This document shows positions 19,648 to 30,937 of a DNA stretch of 64,000 bases, piece by piece. Under the pieces are notes generated by a model, which did no database searches, was not told where the DNA came from, and worked only from the letters and a program-made list of their open reading frames with translations. Origin of the DNA: Bacteroidia bacterium. GTDB taxonomy: Bacteria; Bacteroidota; Bacteroidia; UBA8524. A program made the translations under genes and the position numbers. The stretch's first letter is position 1, and every line of letters begins with the position of its first letter. The stretch lies in the NCBI GenBank assembly GCA_035906255.1, contig JAMIFM010000020.1, positions 3,917 through 67,916 of the forward strand, in the 5' to 3' direction.

Positions 19648-20136
19648 TCATTTCACTGCTTTGCAAACAGTGCGCAGTTTACCCCCTTTAATCAAAGAGT
19701 TTAACTGCTTTTCAGGCTCGGTAAGTGCTTTTTTGCTCCCGCAATTGCACAGTTCAGCTAAAGGCTCTTTATCTATTATTTTATCGTAAAGTTCTTTCAA
19801 CGTGGGTACTTCGGCCAATTTGCTATACTCTTCGTACGTATAACTCAAAAAAGCTACGTTAGCACCTATTCCCTTATTATCCAGCAGATAGCCATCATCA
19901 AGAGTTGTAGGGGTTAAAAAAGCCTCCCCCACCCTTAGGTCGGCAGGATGAGGATAGGCTATAATTTCTGTTTTATCGTCTGATAAAAGCACAGGCACAC
20001 GATTGGCATAATCGCCTTTTGTTTTATACACCAACGCTTGTGGAGCAGGTGTTTCAAAATCAGGTGTAAAAGCAATATTACTTTTGCCCATGCACGCTGC
20101 AAATGCCACCGTTAATATGCCCAGCTTTTTTATCAT
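19648..20136 (-). CDS. Small lipoprotein translationally coupled to the C10 protease gene (candidate cognate protease inhibitor or chaperone)
   Basis: 162 aa with signal peptide and lipobox (TVAFAACMGK). Its start at 20136 overlaps the last base of the C10 protease stop codon (20136-20138). Confidence 0.55.
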   Translation of the reverse strand: MIKKLGILTVAFAACMGKSNIAFTPDFETPAPQALVYKTKGDYANRVPVLLSDDKTEIIAYPHPADLRVGEAFLTPTTLDDGYLLDNKGIGANVAFLSYTYEEYSKLAEVPTLKELYDKIIDKEPLAELCNCGSKKALTEPEKQLNSLIKGGKLRTVCKAVK

Positions 20137-23024
20137 TATTGTTTAGTAATCTTTTTAGTTATCACACCTTCGTTGGTGTGTATCTGCACCAAATAAATAC
20201 CACTTTGCAAGCCGTTTAGCGATACATCGGTAACCTTGCCCGAAACAGCCTCGGTTTGTATCACCTGCCCTTGCAAAGTAGTTAGGGTAATTTGTGATAC
20301 CGCTCCGCCAAACGCGTTGGCATCAACGTGTAATACATTAATCGCAGGGTTAGGATATACACTGATGCTATTTGCCAATGCAGGATTTTCAACCCCAACA
20401 TTTGGCTGTTTAGTGATAGTTACCGTCCATTGTTTGGTACTCAAATCTTCGGCAGTAACGGTATAAGTTACAGGATTAGTGAAATTACGTACCGCCCCTG
20501 ATGGAGGATTAATGCTTGCCAAGTTTGACACTGTAATTACAGGGGTTAGGGCAGTAATATCAGTTTGTGAAGTTACTACTACATTAACCGTAGCATTGGT
20601 GCTGTTAATTGTTGCATTGCCAACAATACCCGTAACCGAAAAACCTGTGATTTCTTTGGCTGAACTTTTGACTTTTGAACGTTGTATTAAAGTTTCAAAC
20701 AGGTAAGTTCCTGTTTCACCGGTAAAATAGGGCGAAACATAAAAGTACACAGTACCGCCGCCTTGTACATTAAAGCTGCCGTTTATTACATCATCATACG
20801 CATCAGACCATGTGCTGCCATCAGTTGAGTATGACAGCAGGCCGTCAAAAGTATAGGTATTACCGTTACCGCTGTTGTATGAATCGTGAATACGGGCTTG
20901 AATGTTATAATCATACCCTGCCGGCAATACCACCTTATAATAATCGTAATCATTGCCCTTGTGGCAGTTAGAACCCGGTGTAGTAATGGTTGCTGCATTA
21001 TTAGAAAAAGTTACAGGCAGGTTATAGGCTTGTCCTACGGTATTATTCACCTCATAAGCATCAGGATTTAAACCGGGCTCAACCACTTGTATGGTAATAG
21101 GGTTAGCATACGCACCGTTGCCCAAAAACTCCCAGTTGCCATTATCAGGTTTATCCCATATAAATAATTGGTATGTACCTGCTGAGTCGGCAATACCGCC
21201 TGTAATGGTATAAGTTAAACCATTGGTAAAGTGGGTGTTTGATGGAAGACTTAAACCGTTTTTGATTGACAGTTCGCGTATCCAAGTACCGTCTGATTTA
21301 TGAATATCTACCGATACATCACCGTTAAAGGTTGATGAGCCAAAATTGGCAATATCAAACTCAACTGTAAACGTTTGGTTGCGAACAATAACTGTTGGGG
21401 TAGTTGTTATAGCCGCATACAACTTAAGCGGGTTGGTATTGTTGCCTTGTACATTTACTGTAATAAAGTTTTGATAATTACCATTGGCAAAAGCCGTCCA
21501 TTGGGTAGCACTGCTTGTTTTGTAATATACCCCTATTTTGTACTCGCCGGGAGTAAGTGCTGATATGCTGCTGGTAGAGAACACCAACGGATTGGTGTAA
21601 TGCTTATTATAATCAAGCGTCATACCCGTTTGGGTTTCAACTGTGGCTACAAACTCATTGTTGGCGTTAAACACTGCAACGGTATAATCACCGCTGAAAT
21701 TTTGCGCTGCCGATGTTCCGTAGTTGGCTACATCTACTGTTACGGTAAAACTCTGACCGTATTGTATCGGGTCGGGGTTCACAACAATATCGCTGTACAA
21801 ACGCATATCAAGGGTTACAGGTGCGCTGCTCGGAGGTTCAATACCAATTACGGCTTGGTGTCCGCTGTTAAAACCACCTGTTCCGCCACCTGTGCCCACA
21901 CCGCCGGGGTTAAGTCCGTTTACTGAAAAATATCCGTCGTAAGCTCCGCTCCAACCCCAGTTAAAATGCAAAAAGTCGTTATTATCATATCCATCGCACA
22001 CAAATGCGTGTCCGCCGCCGCTGCCGAAACCTGCATATAACACAGGGCGGCCTGCGTTTAATTCACCTTTAATCAAATTCAACCATTGGGTTTGGCTGTA
22101 GTTGGCACGCTCCACACCTTGCAGCGAGGTTTTATACCCGAAATAAGTTTCAAAAGCATACTCAGCACAATGGGTAACAGGGCTTTGTGAGTTGATAACA
22201 TACGCACCGCTACCGCCGTTTGCAGCCACATCGTAGTTCATATCCACGCTCACACCACAATGGTACATAAGGGTTGCTACTGCTGTGTTGGTTGAGTTTA
22301 CGCTATTGGGCATACTTCCCCAATTGTAAGTGGTAGCTCCAAAATTGGCTGATAATGTACCGTATGAACTGTGGTTGTATGAGTGATTGCCTGTACCTGT
22401 TGAAGGATAGTTCCAAAACTTCATTACTTGTGCCATAGCGGTAGCCACACAACCTGAAACCGTGCGTTGACCAGCACCTCCGTCATAAGGACAAAGGGCA
22501 TTATAATAAGGGCTTTGATCCCACTTGGTTTGTACCAAAGGCGATACGCTGGCCGCAATGGTATTATCAACGGGTTCGCCTTTTATTAACTCTTGCCACT
22601 GGCCTGCAATAACAGTAGTTTGTTTTACACCATTGGCAATAATGTAACGCATTTCTGTTTTGTAGCCCTCTAACCATTTTGCAGTTTGGGGCGCAACGTT
22701 TGCAGGGTCAAAATCGGCAGCGTCAGAATATCCCAACACCGGTACTGCATTATCATCGGCAGAAACAATTACAAAACCGTTTCCATTGGCCACATTAAAA
22801 ATGTAGTAATAGGCTACGGGTGCCGCAGATGATTGAGAGTTGTAGGCTTTTGAATTTGCGGTAACAGCCAAATCAAGCTGAACACCTGCTTTAAAAGAAC
22901 CACCCGTAACACGGGTAGCTAAGAAGTTTTGCCCTACCAATTTGGCAGTGGCTTCATCAATGGGTTTTGCAACGGCAAACCCGCAAACAATTAAGAGGCT
23001 TAATAGTGCAACTAATTTTTTCAT
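20136..23024 (-). CDS. Peptidase C10 family (streptopain/SpeB-like) cysteine protease with T9SS C-terminal sorting domain
   Basis: Start set at MKKLVALLSLLIVCGFAVA (23024). C10 signature around the catalytic Cys (WDQSPYYNALCPYDGGAGQRTVSGCVATAMAQVMKFW) and a His region (GGGHAFVCDGYDNN). Several Ig-like/lectin-like domains follow. C-terminal VYPNPAINVLHVD...GIYLVQIHTNEGVITKKITKQ matches the Por CTD pattern. Confidence 0.85.
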   Translation of the reverse strand: MKKLVALLSLLIVCGFAVAKPIDEATAKLVGQNFLATRVTGGSFKAGVQLDLAVTANSKAYNSQSSAAPVAYYYIFNVANGNGFVIVSADDNAVPVLGYSDAADFDPANVAPQTAKWLEGYKTEMRYIIANGVKQTTVIAGQWQELIKGEPVDNTIAASVSPLVQTKWDQSPYYNALCPYDGGAGQRTVSGCVATAMAQVMKFWNYPSTGTGNHSYNHSSYGTLSANFGATTYNWGSMPNSVNSTNTAVATLMYHCGVSVDMNYDVAANGGSGAYVINSQSPVTHCAEYAFETYFGYKTSLQGVERANYSQTQWLNLIKGELNAGRPVLYAGFGSGGGHAFVCDGYDNNDFLHFNWGWSGAYDGYFSVNGLNPGGVGTGGGTGGFNSGHQAVIGIEPPSSAPVTLDMRLYSDIVVNPDPIQYGQSFTVTVDVANYGTSAAQNFSGDYTVAVFNANNEFVATVETQTGMTLDYNKHYTNPLVFSTSSISALTPGEYKIGVYYKTSSATQWTAFANGNYQNFITVNVQGNNTNPLKLYAAITTTPTVIVRNQTFTVEFDIANFGSSTFNGDVSVDIHKSDGTWIRELSIKNGLSLPSNTHFTNGLTYTITGGIADSAGTYQLFIWDKPDNGNWEFLGNGAYANPITIQVVEPGLNPDAYEVNNTVGQAYNLPVTFSNNAATITTPGSNCHKGNDYDYYKVVLPAGYDYNIQARIHDSYNSGNGNTYTFDGLLSYSTDGSTWSDAYDDVINGSFNVQGGGTVYFYVSPYFTGETGTYLFETLIQRSKVKSSAKEITGFSVTGIVGNATINSTNATVNVVVTSQTDITALTPVITVSNLASINPPSGAVRNFTNPVTYTVTAEDLSTKQWTVTITKQPNVGVENPALANSISVYPNPAINVLHVDANAFGGAVSQITLTTLQGQVIQTEAVSGKVTDVSLNGLQSGIYLVQIHTNEGVITKKITKQ

Positions 23025-23139
23025 ATTTTGTTTGGTAAGAACTCTGTGTAAACTAAACAAGTGTATCAATACAGTTTACGGCAAAAATAGAGATTGGTTT
23101 AATTTGAACACCAATAAAACCAATGATTTATATCACCTA

Positions 23140-24460: not shown

Positions 24461-25312
24461 TTATCGATTTGTTACTTCTGTTGTTGTTTGGGCTGCCCTG
24501 CGTTTTTCAACCCGTGCAGCAATCATTATCCCTATCTCGTAAAGTATCACCAGCGGTATGCTCATCAATACCTGACTGGTAACATCGGGCGGGGTTAGCA
24601 CAGCAGCTACAATTACTACAATAAGTATGGCATATCGGCGGTATTTGCGCAGGTATGCGGCTGTTACCAATCCTATCTTAGTTAGGAAATAAATGATAAT
24701 AGGCAGTTCAAAAATTATCCCTGTGGCAAGGGTAAGCATGGTAACAAAACTGATGTAAGAATCTACCGTAAATTGGTTTTGAATGTTATCCATCAACTTA
24801 AAATTACCCAAAAAGTTAAGTGATATGGGCGTAAGGATAAAATACCCGAACGATATGCCCAAAAAGAACAAAAAGCTGCCATAGCCCACCATTTGTTTGG
24901 CGTATTTTATTTCTTTATCGCTAAGGGCGGGTTTTATAAACAACCACAACTGGTACAATATCCAAGGAAAGGCCAACACAACTCCCGCAATAATCGATAC
25001 CATAAAATACTGCGTAAACTGCGATGTGATAGAAGGACTAAAAATGGCATACTCTATCGCCTTTAGGCACAATGTGTCGTCATTATTCACAAGGTATGAC
25101 AATTCACACATCTTGCGGTACGTCCAAAAATCGAGATGCGTAGGGCCAAAAATAATTTCATCAAACAATATGTGCGGAAACGCCAACCCAAAGATTGAAA
25201 ACAGCACCACACCCGCCAACGCCCTGATAATATATTTTCTCAGTTCATCAACGTGTTCAAAAAAACTCATTTCCTTCACGGGTTCATCATCAAACTCTTG
25301 GTCTAAAGCCAT
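24461..25312 (-). CDS. tatC: Twin-arginine translocase subunit TatC
   Basis: Six TM segments. TatC N-terminal motif (SFFEHVDELRKYIIRAL) and C-terminal region (LTPPDVTSQVLMSIPLVILYE). Start set at MALDQEF (25312); the ORF track extends 23 codons further to 25381. Confidence 0.9.
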   Translation of the reverse strand: MALDQEFDDEPVKEMSFFEHVDELRKYIIRALAGVVLFSIFGLAFPHILFDEIIFGPTHLDFWTYRKMCELSYLVNNDDTLCLKAIEYAIFSPSITSQFTQYFMVSIIAGVVLAFPWILYQLWLFIKPALSDKEIKYAKQMVGYGSFLFFLGISFGYFILTPISLNFLGNFKLMDNIQNQFTVDSYISFVTMLTLATGIIFELPIIIYFLTKIGLVTAAYLRKYRRYAILIVVIVAAVLTPPDVTSQVLMSIPLVILYEIGIMIAARVEKRRAAQTTTEVTNR

Positions 25313-25446
25313 CTTGTTCAGTCGCTGTTTTAAGGCTGCGAAATTAACTAAAATTGTCGGGAGCAAAAGGCATAAATGCAAACCGATTATGGTACCGCCC
25401 TGCCAAAAACAAACATTAGCAATCTCTTAATACAATTGGGCTACTT

Positions 25447-25935
25447 TTGTTACAAACAATTGTGAGAACACCCGCCAAAAAACGAAGAAAAGTATCGCGT
25501 AAAGCATTGTGGCGGCTCACTCGTCGCTCGCTCATCAACCCGAATGAAGCACCCAAAACAAGGGCATTTAGTGTAGCTGTTGCAGCTTTTTTGGCCTTTG
25601 TGCCTTTGTATGGCCTGCAAACCATTTTAGGCATTCTGGTAGCTTTTGCTTTGCGGCTTAATAAGGTACTGGTAATAGTATTGATAAACGTAATAAACCC
25701 ATACCCCTTGGTTCCTTTTATTATGTACCTGAGTTTTAAAATTGGAGGGTTATTTATGGAATATCCCGCCCAAATTGATGCAGGGCAAAATTTCTCGTGG
25801 CAACTGTTGCAAGATAACTTGCTGCAATACCTAAGCGGTGGGCTTATTTTGGCTATTGTAATGGGTTGCTTGTTGGGTCTTGTATCATATCCGCTTTTTA
25901 TCTCATTGCAAAAAAAGCAACACGCAAAAAACTGA
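25447..25935 (+). CDS. DUF2062-family membrane protein
   Basis: 162 aa with a basic N-terminus and 3-4 TM segments (AVAAFLAFVPLYGLQTILGILVAF...). TTG start in the ORF track; GTG at 25462 is an alternative. Confidence 0.6.
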   Translation: MLQTIVRTPAKKRRKVSRKALWRLTRRSLINPNEAPKTRAFSVAVAAFLAFVPLYGLQTILGILVAFALRLNKVLVIVLINVINPYPLVPFIMYLSFKIGGLFMEYPAQIDAGQNFSWQLLQDNLLQYLSGGLILAIVMGCLLGLVSYPLFISLQKKQHAKN

Positions 25936-26150
25936 CTTTGCGCTTTTTTCGTAAATCATTCAACGTTTAAACAACATTTGTATTAAAAAATATGTCTTGG
26001 GGTGTTACCATTATTGCTAAAACCAAGTGAAAAAAACCAAACAGGTGCTACAAGCCACAGTAAATGTGACATTTGTTGGAAAAATGCCTCTGTTTTTTTA
26101 ATTATTTTTGCCCTTAGCAATTAATGTTCAAACCTTAATTACAACTTACT

Positions 26151-26600
26151 ATGAAACTAAAAACTGTACTTTTAATCGGCCTTATCGTAGCCGTACTAAC
26201 AGCCGCTTATGTTTGGTTCTTTATTTACAACAAACCCAAGAAAAACATTCTTGAAGCAAAGGCTGATTACACATTGACTGTAGCCCAACTTGTGCAAGAA
26301 TTTGAAACCAACCACGACAGTGCCATTGCCAAGTATAACGATAAAGTACTTGAGATTAGCGGTGAGGTGACAAGGATTGAGCCTAATGACTCTATCAGTT
26401 CGGTAGTATTTAAATCAGGCGATAAGTATGAGGTATTTTGCGAAGTGCATCCTGAATACAATACCCAAGCAAAACAACTTGCAGTACCGCAAAAGGTGGT
26501 ATTAAAAGGCTTGTTTATCAGTGCTGAAAAACCCGACACTGATTTTGACCTTGCCGGATTGGTACGCCTTAAGAAAAGCTCTTTTACTAACGAAAAATAA
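26151..26600 (+). CDS. Hypothetical membrane-anchored protein (possible OB-fold domain)
   Basis: 149 aa. N-terminal TM helix (LLIGLIVAVLTAAYVWFFIY) then a ~120-aa soluble domain. First gene of a unidirectional seven-gene cluster. Confidence 0.5.
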   Translation: MKLKTVLLIGLIVAVLTAAYVWFFIYNKPKKNILEAKADYTLTVAQLVQEFETNHDSAIAKYNDKVLEISGEVTRIEPNDSISSVVFKSGDKYEVFCEVHPEYNTQAKQLAVPQKVVLKGLFISAEKPDTDFDLAGLVRLKKSSFTNEK

Positions 26601-26637
26601 TATCTCTTAACGGATATAAGCTCCCATTCTTATTTAG

Positions 26638-27348
26638 ATGAAAAAAATAATCCTTGCGGCCATAGTTGCAACGTTGGCACTTGCATACAGTTGCCAACAC
26701 CAACCCGAAATTGTACCAACAACAAACAACGGAAACCCCAACAACCCCAGCGGGGGAACCGGAAAATGCAACCCTGATAGTGTATATTTTGAAAACGACA
26801 TTCTACCCATTTTAACTTCAAATTGCGGTATGGCGGGTTGTCACGATGCCATTACCCAAACAGAGGGTATCAATGTTGCTTCGCACGCAAGCCTTATTAA
26901 CAGCGGTGCTGTGAAACCCGGAAATGTTAACGGTAGTGATTTGATTGAAGTAATTACAGAAAACGACCCCGACAAGAAAATGCCCCCTCCCCCGCGTACT
27001 CCGTTAACTCAAGAACAGATTAACAAACTTACCAAATGGATACAACAAGGAGCTAAAAACAACAAATGCAACAGCGGTTGCGATACTACCAACTTTAAGT
27101 TTGCAGCAAATGTGTTACCTCTATTGGACACCAAATGTAAAGGCTGCCATAGCGGTGCATTTCCCTCAGCAGGAATATCCCTTACTAATTACGCTGAAGT
27201 GAAAACACAGGCCGATAATGGAAAATTGCTGGGGGCTATAAGCCACGACCCCAGTTACAAACCGATGCCGCAAGGTGCTCCCAAAATGGCCGATTGCGAG
27301 ATAACAATTATACGTAAGTGGATACAAGCAGGTGCACAAAACAACTAA
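26638..27348 (+). CDS. Lipoprotein with two PSCyt1-like (planctomycete-type cytochrome c-like) repeats
   Basis: Lipobox (LALAYSC). Two internal repeats of ~95 aa: ILPILTSNCGMAGCHD...KMPPPPRTPLTQEQINKLTKWIQQGAKNN and VLPLLDTKCKGCHSGAF...KPMPQGAPKMADCEITIIRKWIQAGAQNN. The first has C-x4-CH and the second CxxCH. Confidence 0.6.
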   Translation: MKKIILAAIVATLALAYSCQHQPEIVPTTNNGNPNNPSGGTGKCNPDSVYFENDILPILTSNCGMAGCHDAITQTEGINVASHASLINSGAVKPGNVNGSDLIEVITENDPDKKMPPPPRTPLTQEQINKLTKWIQQGAKNNKCNSGCDTTNFKFAANVLPLLDTKCKGCHSGAFPSAGISLTNYAEVKTQADNGKLLGAISHDPSYKPMPQGAPKMADCEITIIRKWIQAGAQNN

Positions 27349-27420
27349 ACCGCCAAAGTTTGGCACGATAATTTATTTGTATATACCAACATTGAAACTA
27401 AAATTTAAATCTATAGTACT

Positions 27421-27972
27421 ATGAAAAAATTAGCATTTGTAGCTGCATTGGTGTTGATGACAACCTTTGCATTCGGGCAAAAAAAGTATTTTACCCGCAC
27501 AGGTAATATTTCTTTCTTTTCTGATGCTACGTTAGAAGACATTACAGCCAATAACCATCAGGTGACTGCATTGTTTAATACCGCCGACGGTAAACTGGCC
27601 TACAAAGTACCCATTAAAGGTTTTGAGTTTGAAAAGGCTTTGATGCAAGAGCATTTTAACGAAAACTACATGGAATCGGACAAGTATGCTGAGGCTTCAT
27701 TTGACGGTGCTATTGAAGATTTGAAAAAGGTAGATTTTACCAAATCGGGTACCTACAAGGTGAGTGTAAAAGGTAAACTTACCATGCACGGTGTAACTAA
27801 AGACATAACAACCCCCGGTGAGGTTATTGTTGATGCTGCCACAAACAAAGTAACTACCAAAGCTACTTTTAAGGTAGCATTGAAAGACTACAACATCAAA
27901 AACGATAAGGTAGGAAAGATTGCAGATGAAATTGAAATACGTGTAAACGTTGAAATGACGGAGAAAAAATAA
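27421..27972 (+). CDS. YceI-family periplasmic protein
   Basis: 183 aa. Signal peptide and YceI-like beta-barrel pattern (FFSDATLEDITANNHQVTALFN...KGKLTMHGVTKDITTPGEV). Confidence 0.8.
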   Translation: MKKLAFVAALVLMTTFAFGQKKYFTRTGNISFFSDATLEDITANNHQVTALFNTADGKLAYKVPIKGFEFEKALMQEHFNENYMESDKYAEASFDGAIEDLKKVDFTKSGTYKVSVKGKLTMHGVTKDITTPGEVIVDAATNKVTTKATFKVALKDYNIKNDKVGKIADEIEIRVNVEMTEKK

Positions 27973-28057
27973 GGATATTAGAAAGGGACTGTGTTAAACA
28001 ACCTTTTCGTCATTGCGAAAAACTGCTTTTGAGTTTTGAAGCAATCCGTTTGCATTG

Positions 28058-28095
28058 ATTGTGCGAGATTGCTTCGGGAGACCTCGCAATGACGG
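28058..28095. repeat. Short dispersed intergenic repeat of the GTCATTGCGAGG/GAATGACA family
   Basis: cgagattgcttcgggagacctcgcaatgacggcagaat. Related GAATGACA-containing copies lie near 30828-30846, 47615-47640 and 58783-58800. Confidence 0.5.
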
Positions 28096-28156
28096 CAGAA
28101 TTGTACGATACATTTATTTTTATATAGCCCCTTTTCCCTCTAAAAACAAACTAACC

Positions 28157-28540
28157 ATGAATAAACTACTGATGCTGGGAATTGTAGCATTCCTCAGCCT
28201 TCAATCTTGTTATTACGACAACGAAGAAGAACTATACCCGCAAACCGGCAATTGTGATACCACCGCCGTAACCTACAGCGGCACCGTCTCTAAAATACTG
28301 AACCAACGTTGCGCAACTTCAGGCTGCCATTTAGGAGCATCAGGTCAGGCAATCGGTATTTTTGATACCCATGCTAATGTTAAAACATTTTTAGATGCCG
28401 GTAATACCGTGCGGTTTTTAGATGCCATAAACCACCGCAACGGACGCTCGCCAATGCCCAAGGGCAGTGCAACTAAACTTGATGCCTGCGACCTGTTAAA
28501 AATTGAAGCATGGATACATAGCGGCTACCCTAATAACTAA
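28157..28540 (+). CDS. Lipoprotein with a single PSCyt1-like repeat (paralogue of the repeats at 26638-27348)
   Basis: Start set at MNKLLMLGIVAFLSLQSC (lipobox). The ORF-track start at 28055 runs through the dispersed repeat. Motif ILNQRCATSGCHLGA...SPMPKGSATKLDACDLLKIEAWIHSGYPNN includes C-x4-CH. Confidence 0.6.
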   Translation: MNKLLMLGIVAFLSLQSCYYDNEEELYPQTGNCDTTAVTYSGTVSKILNQRCATSGCHLGASGQAIGIFDTHANVKTFLDAGNTVRFLDAINHRNGRSPMPKGSATKLDACDLLKIEAWIHSGYPNN

Positions 28541-28548
28541 CCACTACT

Positions 28549-29475
28549 ATGAAAAAAAATATACTGTTACTGTTAGTATCGTTTGCATTCATACTTCCGG
28601 TTGTTGCTCAACCCGGCAGCAGTTTGCTGGATGAGTTGGATGCCCTTGACTCTAACGTTGAAAAAAAGCCCGATTATGCTTTTGCTACCTTTAAAGGTGT
28701 GCGCGTAATTAACGGACAATCGGTTGAAATTCCTGCAAAAGGCGAATTACTATACATGCTTGCCCACCGCTTTGGCACTATTGAAAACGGCTTTTATGAT
28801 ATGTTTGGTATGGATAGAGCCACCATGCGCATGGGGCTTGAATATACCTTGCCTACTGATTTTGTAACTATTGGTTACGGCCGCAGCACCTATGGCAAAA
28901 CCTACGACGGTTTTATCAAAGCTAAACTGTTTCGTCAGCAATCGGGGGCAAAAAACTTTCCTGTTACCATTGTATGGGTTTCGGATATGGCCATCCGCAG
29001 CGAAAAGTTTACTAATACCGACCGGAAAAACCACTTCTCTTCACGTATCGCTTATATGCACCAGTTATTGATTGCACGTAAGTTTTCAAGCAGCTTTTCG
29101 TTGCAACTAAGCCCAACGGTTATTCACAAAAACCTTGTACACACCGTTAATGAGCAAAACACCTTTTTTAGTATGGGTGTAGGCGGCAGAATGAAATTAA
29201 CCCGCCGTGTATCGCTAAACCTTGAGTATTTTGGTTTTATGCCGGGACAAAACATTCCCAAAATTGGAACGCAAACCATACGCAACACTGTTGCCGTTGG
29301 CTTTGATATTGAAACAGGCGGACACGTTTTCCAGCTTCAGTTTACCAATGCACGTGCCATGTATGACGGAGGTTATATCAGCGAAACCGTTAACGATTTT
29401 GCAGCCCCGAAAGGACAAGGCATTGCTTTTGGCTTTAACCTTACCCGCACATTCTCTTTCAAACGATTTGAATAA
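28549..29475 (+). CDS. Hypothetical outer-membrane beta-barrel protein
   Basis: 308 aa. Signal peptide, alternating hydrophobic beta-strand pattern and C-terminal aromatic residue (SFKRFE). Stop and start are 9 bp from the neighbouring genes. Confidence 0.5.
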   Translation: MKKNILLLLVSFAFILPVVAQPGSSLLDELDALDSNVEKKPDYAFATFKGVRVINGQSVEIPAKGELLYMLAHRFGTIENGFYDMFGMDRATMRMGLEYTLPTDFVTIGYGRSTYGKTYDGFIKAKLFRQQSGAKNFPVTIVWVSDMAIRSEKFTNTDRKNHFSSRIAYMHQLLIARKFSSSFSLQLSPTVIHKNLVHTVNEQNTFFSMGVGGRMKLTRRVSLNLEYFGFMPGQNIPKIGTQTIRNTVAVGFDIETGGHVFQLQFTNARAMYDGGYISETVNDFAAPKGQGIAFGFNLTRTFSFKRFE

Positions 29476-29545
29476 TAAAAATACACCTTTCAACCCTCTT
29501 TTGGCAGGTTAATTGCTGTCGAAAGAGGGTTGTTTCTTTTACAGG

Positions 29546-30037
29546 ATGATTAAAAAAACTGCATACACACTTTTATTGTGGCTAATGGCTTTTGCAGCCA
29601 AAGCACAATTGCAAGACAGCACTACTGTACCCATTGTGGGGTTTGACTACGTGCAACAACTGATGCAACAAAAAAACGATACCACGTATGTAATCAACTT
29701 TTGGGCTACGTGGTGCGGCCCCTGTATTAAAGAGCTACCCCATTTCGACCATTTGAAAGCATCATATCCCGACAAAAAGTTAAAGGTTATCTTAATAAGC
29801 CTTGATTTTAAAAAGAACTACAAGAATGTTTTGTTGCCTTATTTGCAAAAGCACAAAATAACCAGCCCTGTGGCTTTGTTATATGAGCCTGACGCAAACA
29901 GATGGATTGAAAAAGTGAGCCCTGAATGGAGCGGAGCAATACCTGCTACTCTTATTTTTAACAAGAACAAAAGCAGCTTTTATGAACAAGAGTTTACTGA
30001 GAAAGAGCTGCACACCACTGTTGAAACTTATTTTTAA
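29546..30037 (+). CDS. TlpA/ResA-like thiol-disulfide oxidoreductase (thioredoxin fold)
   Basis: Start set at MIKKTAYTLLLWLMAFAAKAQ. Active site WATWCGPCIKELP. Confidence 0.8.
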   Translation: MIKKTAYTLLLWLMAFAAKAQLQDSTTVPIVGFDYVQQLMQQKNDTTYVINFWATWCGPCIKELPHFDHLKASYPDKKLKVILISLDFKKNYKNVLLPYLQKHKITSPVALLYEPDANRWIEKVSPEWSGAIPATLIFNKNKSSFYEQEFTEKELHTTVETYF

Positions 30038-30064
30038 CCCCTGATATACTAAACACAAACAGAT

Positions 30065-30691
30065 ATGAAAAAAGTTATCCTTTCGGCCATAGCGTTGCTT
30101 GCAGTTGCAGCAATGGCTGTTGCCTTTACTTACAAAACAAATGCAACAACAGGCTATGCCATTGGTGATGCCGCCGCCGATTTTTCGTTAAAAAACATCG
30201 ACGGTAAAATGGTTTCTTTAGCTGACTTTAAAGACGCTAAAGGCTATATTGTAGTATTTACCTGCAACCATTGCCCGTATGCAAAGGCGTATGAAGATCG
30301 TTTGGTAGCACTTGATAAGAAATATAAAACACAAGGCTACCCCGTAATTGCTATTAACCCTAACGACCCTGCGGTGAATGCCGAGGATAGCTATGAAAAA
30401 ATGCAGGAACGCGCCAAAGAAAAAGGATTTACTTTCCCCTATTTGTTTGACGAAGGACAAAAGATATTTCCAATTTTTGGTGCTACACGCACCCCACACG
30501 TATTTATCCTGCAAAAAGACGGTGCTAAAAACGTTGTAAAATACATTGGAGCTATTGACGATAATCACGAGGATGAAACTGCCGTGAAAACCAAATATGT
30601 TGAAGGCGCTGTTGATGCCTTAATTGCTGGCAAAGCACCAAACCCCGAAACAACAAAAGCTATCGGGTGCACCATTAAAGTTAAAAAATAA
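30065..30691 (+). CDS. Thioredoxin-fold redoxin family protein (C-x-x-C = CNHC)
   Basis: 208 aa. Signal peptide. Redoxin-like core (YIVVFTCNHCPYAKAYEDRLVAL...HVFILQKDG). Confidence 0.75.
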   Translation: MKKVILSAIALLAVAAMAVAFTYKTNATTGYAIGDAAADFSLKNIDGKMVSLADFKDAKGYIVVFTCNHCPYAKAYEDRLVALDKKYKTQGYPVIAINPNDPAVNAEDSYEKMQERAKEKGFTFPYLFDEGQKIFPIFGATRTPHVFILQKDGAKNVVKYIGAIDDNHEDETAVKTKYVEGAVDALIAGKAPNPETTKAIGCTIKVKK

Positions 30692-30714
30692 ACGCCGTTT
30701 ATACAGCGATAAGC

Positions 30715-30746
30715 AAAGGGGCTGTCTTTTGAGACAGCCCCTTTTT
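30715..30746 (+). terminator. Rho-independent terminator ending the 26.1-30.7 kb gene cluster
   Basis: aaaggggctgtc-ttttga-gacagcccctttt followed by ttg. A related imperfect hairpin (30882-30911) follows the convergent yebC-like gene. Confidence 0.8.
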
Positions 30747-30937
30747 GTTATTAACGAATAATTGTTGCCATGCTGACATAGGAAGCAACTTATCACGCTT
30801 TGATAACGCACTTGCTATAAGTTTCCTCTCTGCCCTTCGGAATGACAGGGAAATAAACCTCTGAACATACAAACAAAAAAGGGACTATCTCAAAAGTTGA
30901 GACAGCCCCCTTAATTTTATAAGCAGTTATTGGAAAA

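Follow-up and report, generated by a model that had tools for sequence, protein, structure and literature searches.

A conserved five-gene envelope module that links predicted lipoprotein c-type cytochromes to a DUF5777 outer-membrane barrel, YceI, and an OB-fold protein in Bacteroidota

A stretch of 64,000 nucleotides of a Bacteroidia bacterium (UBA8524; assembly GCA_035906255.1, contig JAMIFM010000020.1, positions 3,917 to 67,916 of the forward strand), referred to here as the window, carries seven neighboring genes (g1 to g7). The first five encode an oligonucleotide/oligosaccharide-binding (OB) fold protein (g1), a predicted di-haem lipoprotein cytochrome (g2), a YceI-family protein (g3), a predicted mono-haem lipoprotein cytochrome (g4), and a DUF5777 barrel (g5). 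Here, we show that these five genes form a conserved envelope module that is found across the Bacteroidota as well as in the KSB1 phylum and in a metagenome-assembled genome (MAG) labelled Chlorobiota. The account that we favor, with a confidence slightly better than even, is that this five-gene envelope module serves outer-membrane-associated electron transfer. An original prediction, made from the window's sequence alone, had described all seven genes as one system for periplasmic redox or haem handling. The seven open reading frames (ORFs) are indeed all present and co-oriented on the + strand (26151-30691), but across 160 loci only the types of g1 to g5 travel together. g1, which the prediction had left unnamed, turns out to be a core member.

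Two scans, independent of each other, established the linkage. In the first, genomes were scanned with g2 as anchor and 10 closer sequences as query, which gave at least 507 matching stretches; in the second, metagenomes were scanned with DUF5777 as anchor, which gave at least 584 matches. From each, 80 loci were kept, and 30 of the DUF5777-anchored loci have at least 3 kb on both sides. DUF5777 is encoded in 65 of the 80 g2-anchored loci, YceI in 58, and the OB-fold protein in 57 to 58, and most of these loci also contain the small mono-haem gene. The 30 well-flanked DUF5777-anchored loci contain an adjacent cytochrome (29 loci), YceI (26), the OB-fold gene (20), and a TlpA-like gene (1). YceI is present in 71-87% of loci, and the OB-fold gene, which is also found in 36 of 56 well-flanked loci, usually lies beside it. 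The predicted clustering of the cytochromes with YceI and an outer-membrane barrel is thus a conserved linkage. Conservation of the gene order had been proposed as a check, and here the content was found to be kept while the order is permuted. The commonest order is di-haem, mono-haem, OB, YceI, and barrel, whereas the order in the window (OB, di-haem, YceI, mono-haem, and barrel) is rarer; despite the permutation, the OB and YceI genes mostly stay neighbors. Most related loci have three haem motifs. The same five genes and motifs are also found in a KSB1 locus (L081, 1-3684), where they lie directly downstream of NrfD-like, ResB, and CcsA genes. It is the sole locus seen in which maturation genes (ResB-CcsA) adjoin the module.

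In the window, g1 to g5 appear to be one transcription unit that ends at a conserved hairpin between g5 and g6 (Table 1). This hairpin is kept in L001 (CALRQL020000009.1, ~9715-9760), the closest relative of the window (g2 86% identical), where the pairing ACCC/GGGT is replaced by ATAC/GTAT through two compensatory double substitutions, which argues for a functional terminator or attenuator. A further terminator-like hairpin follows the DUF2062 gene upstream of the module. Bacteroidetes promoters have the -7 consensus TAnnTTTG, and the sole intergenic + strand match to it in 25800-30800 is TATTTTTG (26103-26110, +), which is a motif match only and lies 48 nt upstream of g1. A scan for sigma-70 promoters gave 15 sites versus 13.3 expected.

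The TlpA-like protein g6 and the redoxin g7 were thought to be members of the system, a claim with which neither the linkage nor the hairpin agrees. An iterated thioredoxin-fold profile places such an ORF no more than 500 bp from the module in only 6 of the 160 loci, and a neighbor of this type is found in 1 of 30 and 1-2 of 56 well-flanked loci. Among the 80 g2-anchored loci, a TlpA-like gene is present in L001 only and a redoxin in 3, and it is only in the window and L001 that both follow the module. g6 combines a signal peptide with a thioredoxin fold and WCGPC; its best NCBIfam matches (TlpA, ResA, and StoA) score 44 bits versus equivalog cutoffs of 170-230. g7 scores 60 bits versus an equivalog cutoff of 170, which leaves membership of the thioredoxin fold at the domain level only. 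Neither the equivalog score nor conserved linkage identifies a dedicated ResA/TlpA reductase. It was concluded that g6 and g7 are a separate adjacent pair with possible read-through, and the two should not be transferred as system members during annotation. Nothing that points to haem handling was found.

The predicted PSCyt1 domain was borne out by a hidden Markov model (HMM) search, in which residues 67-118 of g2 score 44.9 bits versus the Pfam gathering cutoff of 22; g2 also lies above threshold for Cytochrome_CBB3 and Cytochrom_C. The homologue matches of g2 are 41-97% identical, and in the 30 that were aligned the residues C63, G67, C68, H69, M115, P116, and W134 of domain 1 and C167, C170, H171, M210, P211, and W228 of domain 2 are invariant. 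Of the extra cysteines, C148 and C220 are invariant and C44 and C144 nearly so. Judged from this alignment, the conservation is far beyond chance. Each domain would contain a single haem motif together with a distal Met-Pro and a stapling disulfide, the latter being suggested by analogy with FoxE. Likewise, C52, C57, H58, and M100 are invariant among the homologues of g4. Both g2 and g4 therefore combine a haem-attachment cysteine pair, a proximal histidine, and a conserved distal methionine, as class I-like c-type cytochromes do. The view of the PSCyt1-like repeats as cytochrome-c-like domains is supported by the PSCyt1 HMM and by the conserved Cys, His, and Met residues.

g4 matches no Pfam model, and domain 2 of g2 likewise stays below Pfam detection. 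Aligned with hhalign, g4 and domain 2 of the g2 family match with a probability of 99.2% (E 2e-19, 39% identity), and their motifs differ by a two-residue gap alone. The AlphaFold2 (AF2) model of g2 is all-helical with a predicted local distance difference test (pLDDT) score of 80, and nearly all of its fold matches are c-type cytochromes, starting with the hydrazine synthase haem domain, followed by PccH, c551, and c6. Compared with PDB sequences, the g2 profile matches best the di-haem Fe(II) oxidoreductase FoxE (5MAB), although weakly and partially (E 1.1e-4). The PSCyt1-like signature also matches the N-terminus of CTI, a lipid-acting haem enzyme. A profile of g4 homologues matches 12,467 cluster representatives (50% identity) at E <= 0.001, and members of this domain family have 1 to 8 tandem copies of the haem domain per protein. 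Tandem arrays were observed in L069 (6179-7768), P0258, P0289, and P0386, with 5 motifs in 529 aa, 7 in 749 aa, and 7-8 in 1611-1830 aa. Bacteroidota-type arrays no longer than ~750 aa almost always end in a CxxCH domain, which often follows a C-x4-CH domain.

The N-termini of both lipoproteins are conserved as well. In g4 (residues 18-28, 28208-28240) and its orthologues from L001 to L163, the lipobox cysteine opens a near-invariant C-Y-Y-D-x-E-E-x-L-Y-P, with Y at +1 in 65 and D at +3 in 66 of 69 sequences. The di-haem lipoproteins start with C-(K/T)-H-(E/D)-P, with a histidine at +2 in 66 of 72. These N-termini could be sorting, docking, or ligand motifs. The acidic tail of the mono-haem protein resembles the surface-export signals of Bacteroidetes, and, as far as the alignment indicates, its conservation goes beyond that likeness. 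Taken together, the cytochrome domains are predicted to be small, haem-binding, class I-like domains of the PSCyt1/FoxE type on proteins that would be Sec-exported and lipidated. Bacteroidota use system II maturation, and the cytochromes are probably matured by this general machinery (CcsBA). The mono-haem member is now annotated as 'hypothetical', and proteins of the g4 type should be called c-type cytochromes.

A canonical CxxCH at the domain start is found in domain 2 of g2 only, and not in domain 1 of g2 or in g4. The three haem motifs of the original prediction (CGMAGCH, CKGCH, and CATSGCH) translate as quoted. Its view of C-x4-CH as rare did not hold, as this spacing is a hallmark of the family: the best 148 representatives contain 158 C-x4-CH and 213 CxxCH motifs (~42% C-x4-CH). 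Domain 1 of the di-haem protein invariably has C-x4-CH; of 77 di-domain orthologues, 76 are ordered C-x4-CH and then CxxCH. In the mono-haem orthologues (n=111), one and the same aligned site is CxxCH in 87, C-x4-CH in 20, and C-x3-CH in 4, and the change between C-x4-CH and CxxCH is a clean two-residue indel. At least 9 state changes were counted on a neighbor-joining tree, which is noisy due to the short sequences. That the two spacings interconvert repeatedly speaks, more than any other sequence evidence, for a role of both C-x4-CH cysteines in haem attachment, and C-x4-CH is probably equivalent to CxxCH for the predicted attachment. The routine interchange of both spacings bears on the substrate specificity of CcsBA. 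Surveys of haem motifs accept CXXXXCH as a haem c motif (PMC11492766, PMC10734462), so C-x4-CH is uncommon in general yet not new.

The barrel protein g5 matches the DUF5777 HMM above threshold (285.9 bits), and its AF2 model has 12 strands with a predicted template modelling (pTM) score of 0.72. Its Foldseek matches are barrels (FapF, OmpG, the COG4313 channel, and LpxR) but generic, with a TM of ~0.47; among these fold neighbors are a channel for hydrophobic molecules (COG4313) and a lipid A enzyme (LpxR). No solved sequence relative of DUF5777 was found. An alignment of 30 sequences has 51 invariant columns, many of which are charged or polar and which include H73, H193, H259, and M271, and DUF5777 proteins of distant lineages are ~50% identical, which is unusually high for a barrel. 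Conservation of this degree is more suggestive of an enzyme or a specific channel than of a general porin. There are more than 7,350 DUF5777 homologues above threshold, a number that is a lower bound. Since nearly every DUF5777 gene is linked to genes for lipoprotein c-type cytochromes, mostly with YceI and the OB fold alongside, the family obtains a testable functional context. No description of the module or of DUF5777 was found in the literature that was searched, and a literature search for YceI with cytochrome c in Bacteroidetes gave nothing relevant (PMC5429918 is unrelated). The Bacteroidota to which this context applies are abundant in soil, freshwater, marine, and wastewater habitats, and the cultured strains Terrimonas sp. 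R1 and Phaeodactylibacter xiamenensis are among the carriers of the module.

g3 scores 63.2 bits with the YceI HMM (cutoff 23.7), has a visible signal peptide, and matches Escherichia coli YceI (1Y0G) with E 4.5e-5. As for the OB-fold protein g1, a role as CcmE-like haem chaperone was considered, given its membrane anchor and HPEY motif, and rejected: the histidine is not conserved in 40 orthologues and no CcmE HMM matches.

Several known systems resemble parts of the module. FoxE of Rhodobacter ferrooxidans also has two small c-type haem domains, a stapling disulfide (C80-C258; PMC10654088), and the pattern RMPP ... W-I-x-x-G-A. FoxE is His/Met ligated, and g2 has the conserved Met-Pro. However, FoxE is a soluble protein with two CxxCH motifs that is encoded in foxEYZ beside FoxY (a propeller of the pyrroloquinoline quinone type) and FoxZ, whereas g2 is a lipoprotein whose domain 1 is invariantly C-x4-CH and whose partners are DUF5777, YceI, and the OB fold. 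FoxE orthology together with FoxY and FoxZ was not found, and the match stays at the superfamily level. Planctomycete PSCyt1-PSCyt2-PSD1 proteins are similar in that domain 1 of g2 passes PF07635; due to the C-x4-CH motif, the PSCyt1 HMM alignment begins after the first cysteine of g2 (profile position 3). Planctomycete PSCyt1 domains are fused to DUF1549/DUF1553-type domains, unlike the haem domains of the module, which occur as free-standing tandem arrays of 1-8 copies.

Genes for c-type cytochromes, including lipoproteins, are also tightly linked to a dedicated barrel gene in MtrCAB, PioAB/MtoAB, Geobacter Pcc, and Cyc2, and by analogy the cytochrome-barrel linkage of the module suits an electron exchange at or across the outer membrane. 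Systems of this kind have 8-12 bis-His haems and 16-26 strands, whereas the module would have 3 haems of the His/Met type and ~12 strands, and its YceI and OB-fold partners have no counterpart in porin-cytochrome conduits. In place of the cytochrome of at least 8 haems and the ~20 or more strands of MtrAB/Pcc, most loci have 3 motifs and the barrel 12 predicted strands, and a Cyc2-type fusion is absent as g4 and g5 are separate genes. In the proteobacterial yceI-yceJ pair, a YceI lipid/isoprenoid binder is likewise genetically coupled to a cytochrome; there it is a membrane di-haem b protein, while the module has c-type lipoproteins and an outer-membrane barrel. Finally, g6 resembles the ResA/CcsX reductants of system II in its signal peptide, thioredoxin fold, and WCGPC. 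It differs from system II operons in that ResB/CcsA are absent from the window cluster and g6 is not syntenic with cytochromes. The module is thus neither FoxEYZ, nor an Mtr/Pcc conduit, nor a Cyc2 fusion, nor a ResA-coupled maturation operon; its nearest likeness is to a small pairing of porin and cytochrome to which a lipid-carrier arm has been added.

While the anatomy of the module is well supported, its mechanism is something that we infer. Three His/Met-ligated haems tethered to the outer membrane would connect the respiratory chain with a substrate by electron transfer; this substrate would enter via the DUF5777 barrel or bind to it. A lipophile of the isoprenoid or quinone type, acting as substrate, cofactor, or shuttle, would be carried by YceI together with the OB-fold protein. 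The mono-haem protein may be guided to the barrel or to the cell surface by its acidic N-terminus, and in many genomes the module would be controlled by a trio of YceI, propeller kinase, and LytTR regulator or by an AraC regulator. Candidate substrates are iron, for which FoxE is the analogue, a quinone or lipid, in line with YceI, and, as a weak candidate, a metal such as copper. A number of points weigh against this account. The E-values of the g2 fold search are weak, the best being 0.048. The His/Met ligation, and with it the probably high potential of the haems, would follow from the conserved Met-Pro and from FoxE. A 12-strand barrel is too narrow to house a cytochrome in the way MtrB does, and a cytochrome-barrel fusion is absent from the 120 DUF5777 homologues and the 150 domain representatives listed. 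The OB and YceI genes are absent from ~15-35% of loci; the minimal form consists of the cytochromes and the barrel. Among 143 dereplicated neighbor families, no respiratory, metal, or other enrichment names a substrate. Lastly, there is no TAnnTTTG match between g5 and g6, and read-through into g6 and g7 is possible for that reason.

The latter point counts in favor of the original seven-gene system, in which the TlpA-like protein and the redoxin would be dedicated reductants of apocytochrome cysteines and which we consider quite improbable. Cytochromes do need reduced haem-motif cysteines and oxidized structural ones, in the window and L001 the genes share one orientation and are separated by short gaps, and a CGPC/CGWC thioredoxin-fold gene lies beside the module in the unrelated loci L065, L103, and L157. 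TlpA-like paralogues are numerous in Bacteroidota, however, and chance adjacency to the module is therefore expected; the rarity of thioredoxin-fold neighbors, the conserved hairpin that splits g5 from g6, and the scores of g6 and g7 far under the ResA/TlpA equivalog cutoffs all speak against a dedicated role. Somewhat less improbable, and still rather unlikely in our view, is an iron redox module that would perform a FoxE-like Fe(II) oxidation or reduce chelated Fe(III) via DUF5777 for detoxification, energy, or iron acquisition. It would fit with FoxE as best solved relative, which shares C..CH ... L-x-L-T-x-Y ... RMPP ... W-I-x-x-G-A and the stapling disulfide, and with the cytochrome and barrel pairings that are typical of the Fe(II) oxidizers Cyc2 and PioAB/MtoAB (PMC10654088). 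This likeness is nevertheless one of the domain superfamily, shared with the hydrazine synthase haem domain and the CTI N-terminus. There are no foxY/foxZ genes among the window neighbors or the 160 loci and no iron-related enrichment among the 143 neighbor families, the hosts are apparently mostly ordinary heterotrophs, and YceI and the OB-fold protein are left unexplained.

The latter two proteins are central to an envelope protection system based on quinones or lipids, to which we assign a similarly small probability. The module would then be a c-type analogue of YceI with cytochrome b561: the cytochromes would oxidize or reduce a quinone or lipid presented by YceI, or scavenge reactive oxygen, and DUF5777 would act on or pass the lipophile. 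The frequency of YceI, the wiring of a second YceI to a kinase in ~30 loci, the COG4313 channel and LpxR among the fold neighbors of the barrel, and the signature shared with the lipid-acting CTI all point in this direction, as does the E. coli pairing of yceI with the cytochrome b561 gene yceJ. Set against this are the minimal module without YceI and OB and the generic nature of the barrel fold matches. Copper or metal homeostasis, in which the His and Met residues of the barrel would form a metal path and the cytochromes would alter the redox state of the metal, seems very unlikely. Apart from the four invariant His and Met residues of DUF5777, it draws on a heavy-metal P-type ATPase that neighbors the module in a Chitinophagaceae synteny block and, as an independent case, in L046, on a CusB-like fusion protein and a large RND-like gene upstream in Phaeodactylibacter loci, and on DUF4920 downstream in 9 loci. 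These are about three independent contexts out of dozens, metal functions are not enriched among the 143 neighbor families (HlyD in 2 of 143), and the window has no metal genes near the module.

The favored electron-transfer account can be extended to a minimal trans-envelope redox device, which we regard as rather unlikely. Here, YceI and the OB-fold protein in the inner membrane would ferry a quinol-type carrier to the three haems, which would cooperate with a barrel that is catalytic or specific for a substrate, while the mono-haem lipoprotein may be exposed at the surface. If true, such a device would exchange electrons with an extracellular or outer-membrane substrate without multihaem wires, and system II (CcsBA) would routinely mature C-x4-CH sites.

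With regard to regulation, a pair of a propeller/Y_Y_Y LytS-type histidine kinase and a LytTR regulator accompanies the module in 30 of the 160 loci, and in the gene maps of nearly all of these an extra YceI gene lies directly upstream of the pair. This YceI may be a ligand-presenting co-sensor. The trio was observed upstream, downstream, or inverted in L018, L022-L029, L036, L039, L041, L045, L062, L072, L079, and others. The window has a propeller/Y_Y_Y kinase and LytTR pair of its own (58835-62621, -), which was considered as regulator of the module and rejected; as the kinase is 22% identical to the module-linked ones and lies 29 kb off, the pair is probably an unrelated paralogue. It adjoins a 1183-aa cargo protein of the type IX secretion system (T9SS) and a MacB/HlyD/OEP efflux set. 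In 14 Chitinophagaceae-type loci (e.g., L008, 2683-3618), an AraC regulator lies directly upstream of the module. Its N-terminus is Cys-rich (C-x7-C ... E-C-D-x-C ... C) and may be a redox or metal sensor.

Some loci contain additional proteins which hint that the system may reach the cell surface. In L009, L010 (7797-8591), and L011, a 264-aa choice-of-anchor-V protein with CTACH and a T9SS sorting domain is encoded between the di-haem and mono-haem genes and may be a surface-located haem protein. In L045 (4684-6300), L072 (4196-6250), and L079 (4717-6297), SprB-repeat proteins of 526-684 aa end in one C-x4-CH domain. Their genes sit just upstream of the module, after the kinase/regulator pair.

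Table 1. Genes, haem motifs, and other features of the module region, in window positions
Feature	Position	Strand	Description
g1	26151-26600	+	tRNA_anti-like OB fold (PF12869, E 5.6e-12); N-terminal transmembrane helix; core module member
g2	26638-27348	+	predicted di-haem lipoprotein cytochrome c; PSCyt1 (PF07635, E 1.8e-11); lipobox Cys19
g2 domain 1 C-x4-CH (CGMAGCH)	26824-26844	+	from translation
g2 domain 2 CxxCH (CKGCH)	27136-27150	+	from translation
g3	27421-27972	+	secreted YceI-family (polyisoprenoid-binding, lipocalin-like) protein (PF04264, E 4.6e-17)
Palindromic insertion in the g3-g4 spacer	27990-28120		MITE/REP-like; not a part of the module
g4	28157-28540	+	predicted mono-haem lipoprotein cytochrome c; lipobox Cys18; without Pfam match
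g4 C-x4-CH (CATSGCH)	28310-28330	+	from translation
g5	28549-29475	+	DUF5777 outer-membrane beta-barrel (PF19089, E 3e-85)
Terminator-like hairpin	29491-29541	+	17-bp stem and T-run; between g5 and g6
g6	29546-30037	+	secreted TlpA/ResA-like thioredoxin-fold protein, WCGPC; neighbor, not a conserved module member
g7	30065-30691	+	AhpC-TSA/Redoxin (E 1e-20), CNHC; neighbor, not a conserved module member
Second terminator-like hairpin	30715-30744	+	13-bp stem with 7 GC pairs and T-run; ends the g6-g7 pair

Two start codons differ from the mechanical ones: g4 starts at ATG 28157 and not at TTG 28055, as the flank of the former is conserved in L001, and g6 starts at ATG 29546, as the upstream TTG 29513 falls within the hairpin. 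The gaps between the seven genes are 37, 72, 184, 8, 70, and 27 bp and not, as had been stated, 9-152 bp. The signature K/RKMPP...WIxxGAxNN, which had been assigned to the end of each repeat, was retained in part: KKMPP is present in domain 1 of g2 only and the other two domains have xPMPxG, whereas all three end in W-I-x-x-G-x-x-N-N.

The 184-bp gap between g3 and g4 contains the inserted palindromic element of ~131 bp. A perfect 11-bp inverted repeat (CGTCATTGCGA at 28008-28018 and TCGCAATGACG at 28084-28094) lies within it, its predicted fold has -42.1 kcal/mol (z -5.5), and it occurs once in the window and is absent from L001. Rfam has no credible match for the insertion or the hairpins. 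The insertion looks like an element of the miniature inverted-repeat transposable element (MITE) or repetitive extragenic palindromic (REP) type.

Upstream of the module, the window encodes a 977-aa C10 (streptopain-like) peptidase with inhibitor I69 and a T9SS sorting tail (20136-23069, -), TatC (24461-25381, -), and the DUF2062 protein (25447-25935, +), none of which is conserved beside the module elsewhere. The public title of L001 is that of an 'Agrobacterium sp.' MAG, yet the contig contains a Bacteroidota-type module and is probably a mis-binned or mislabelled MAG contig.

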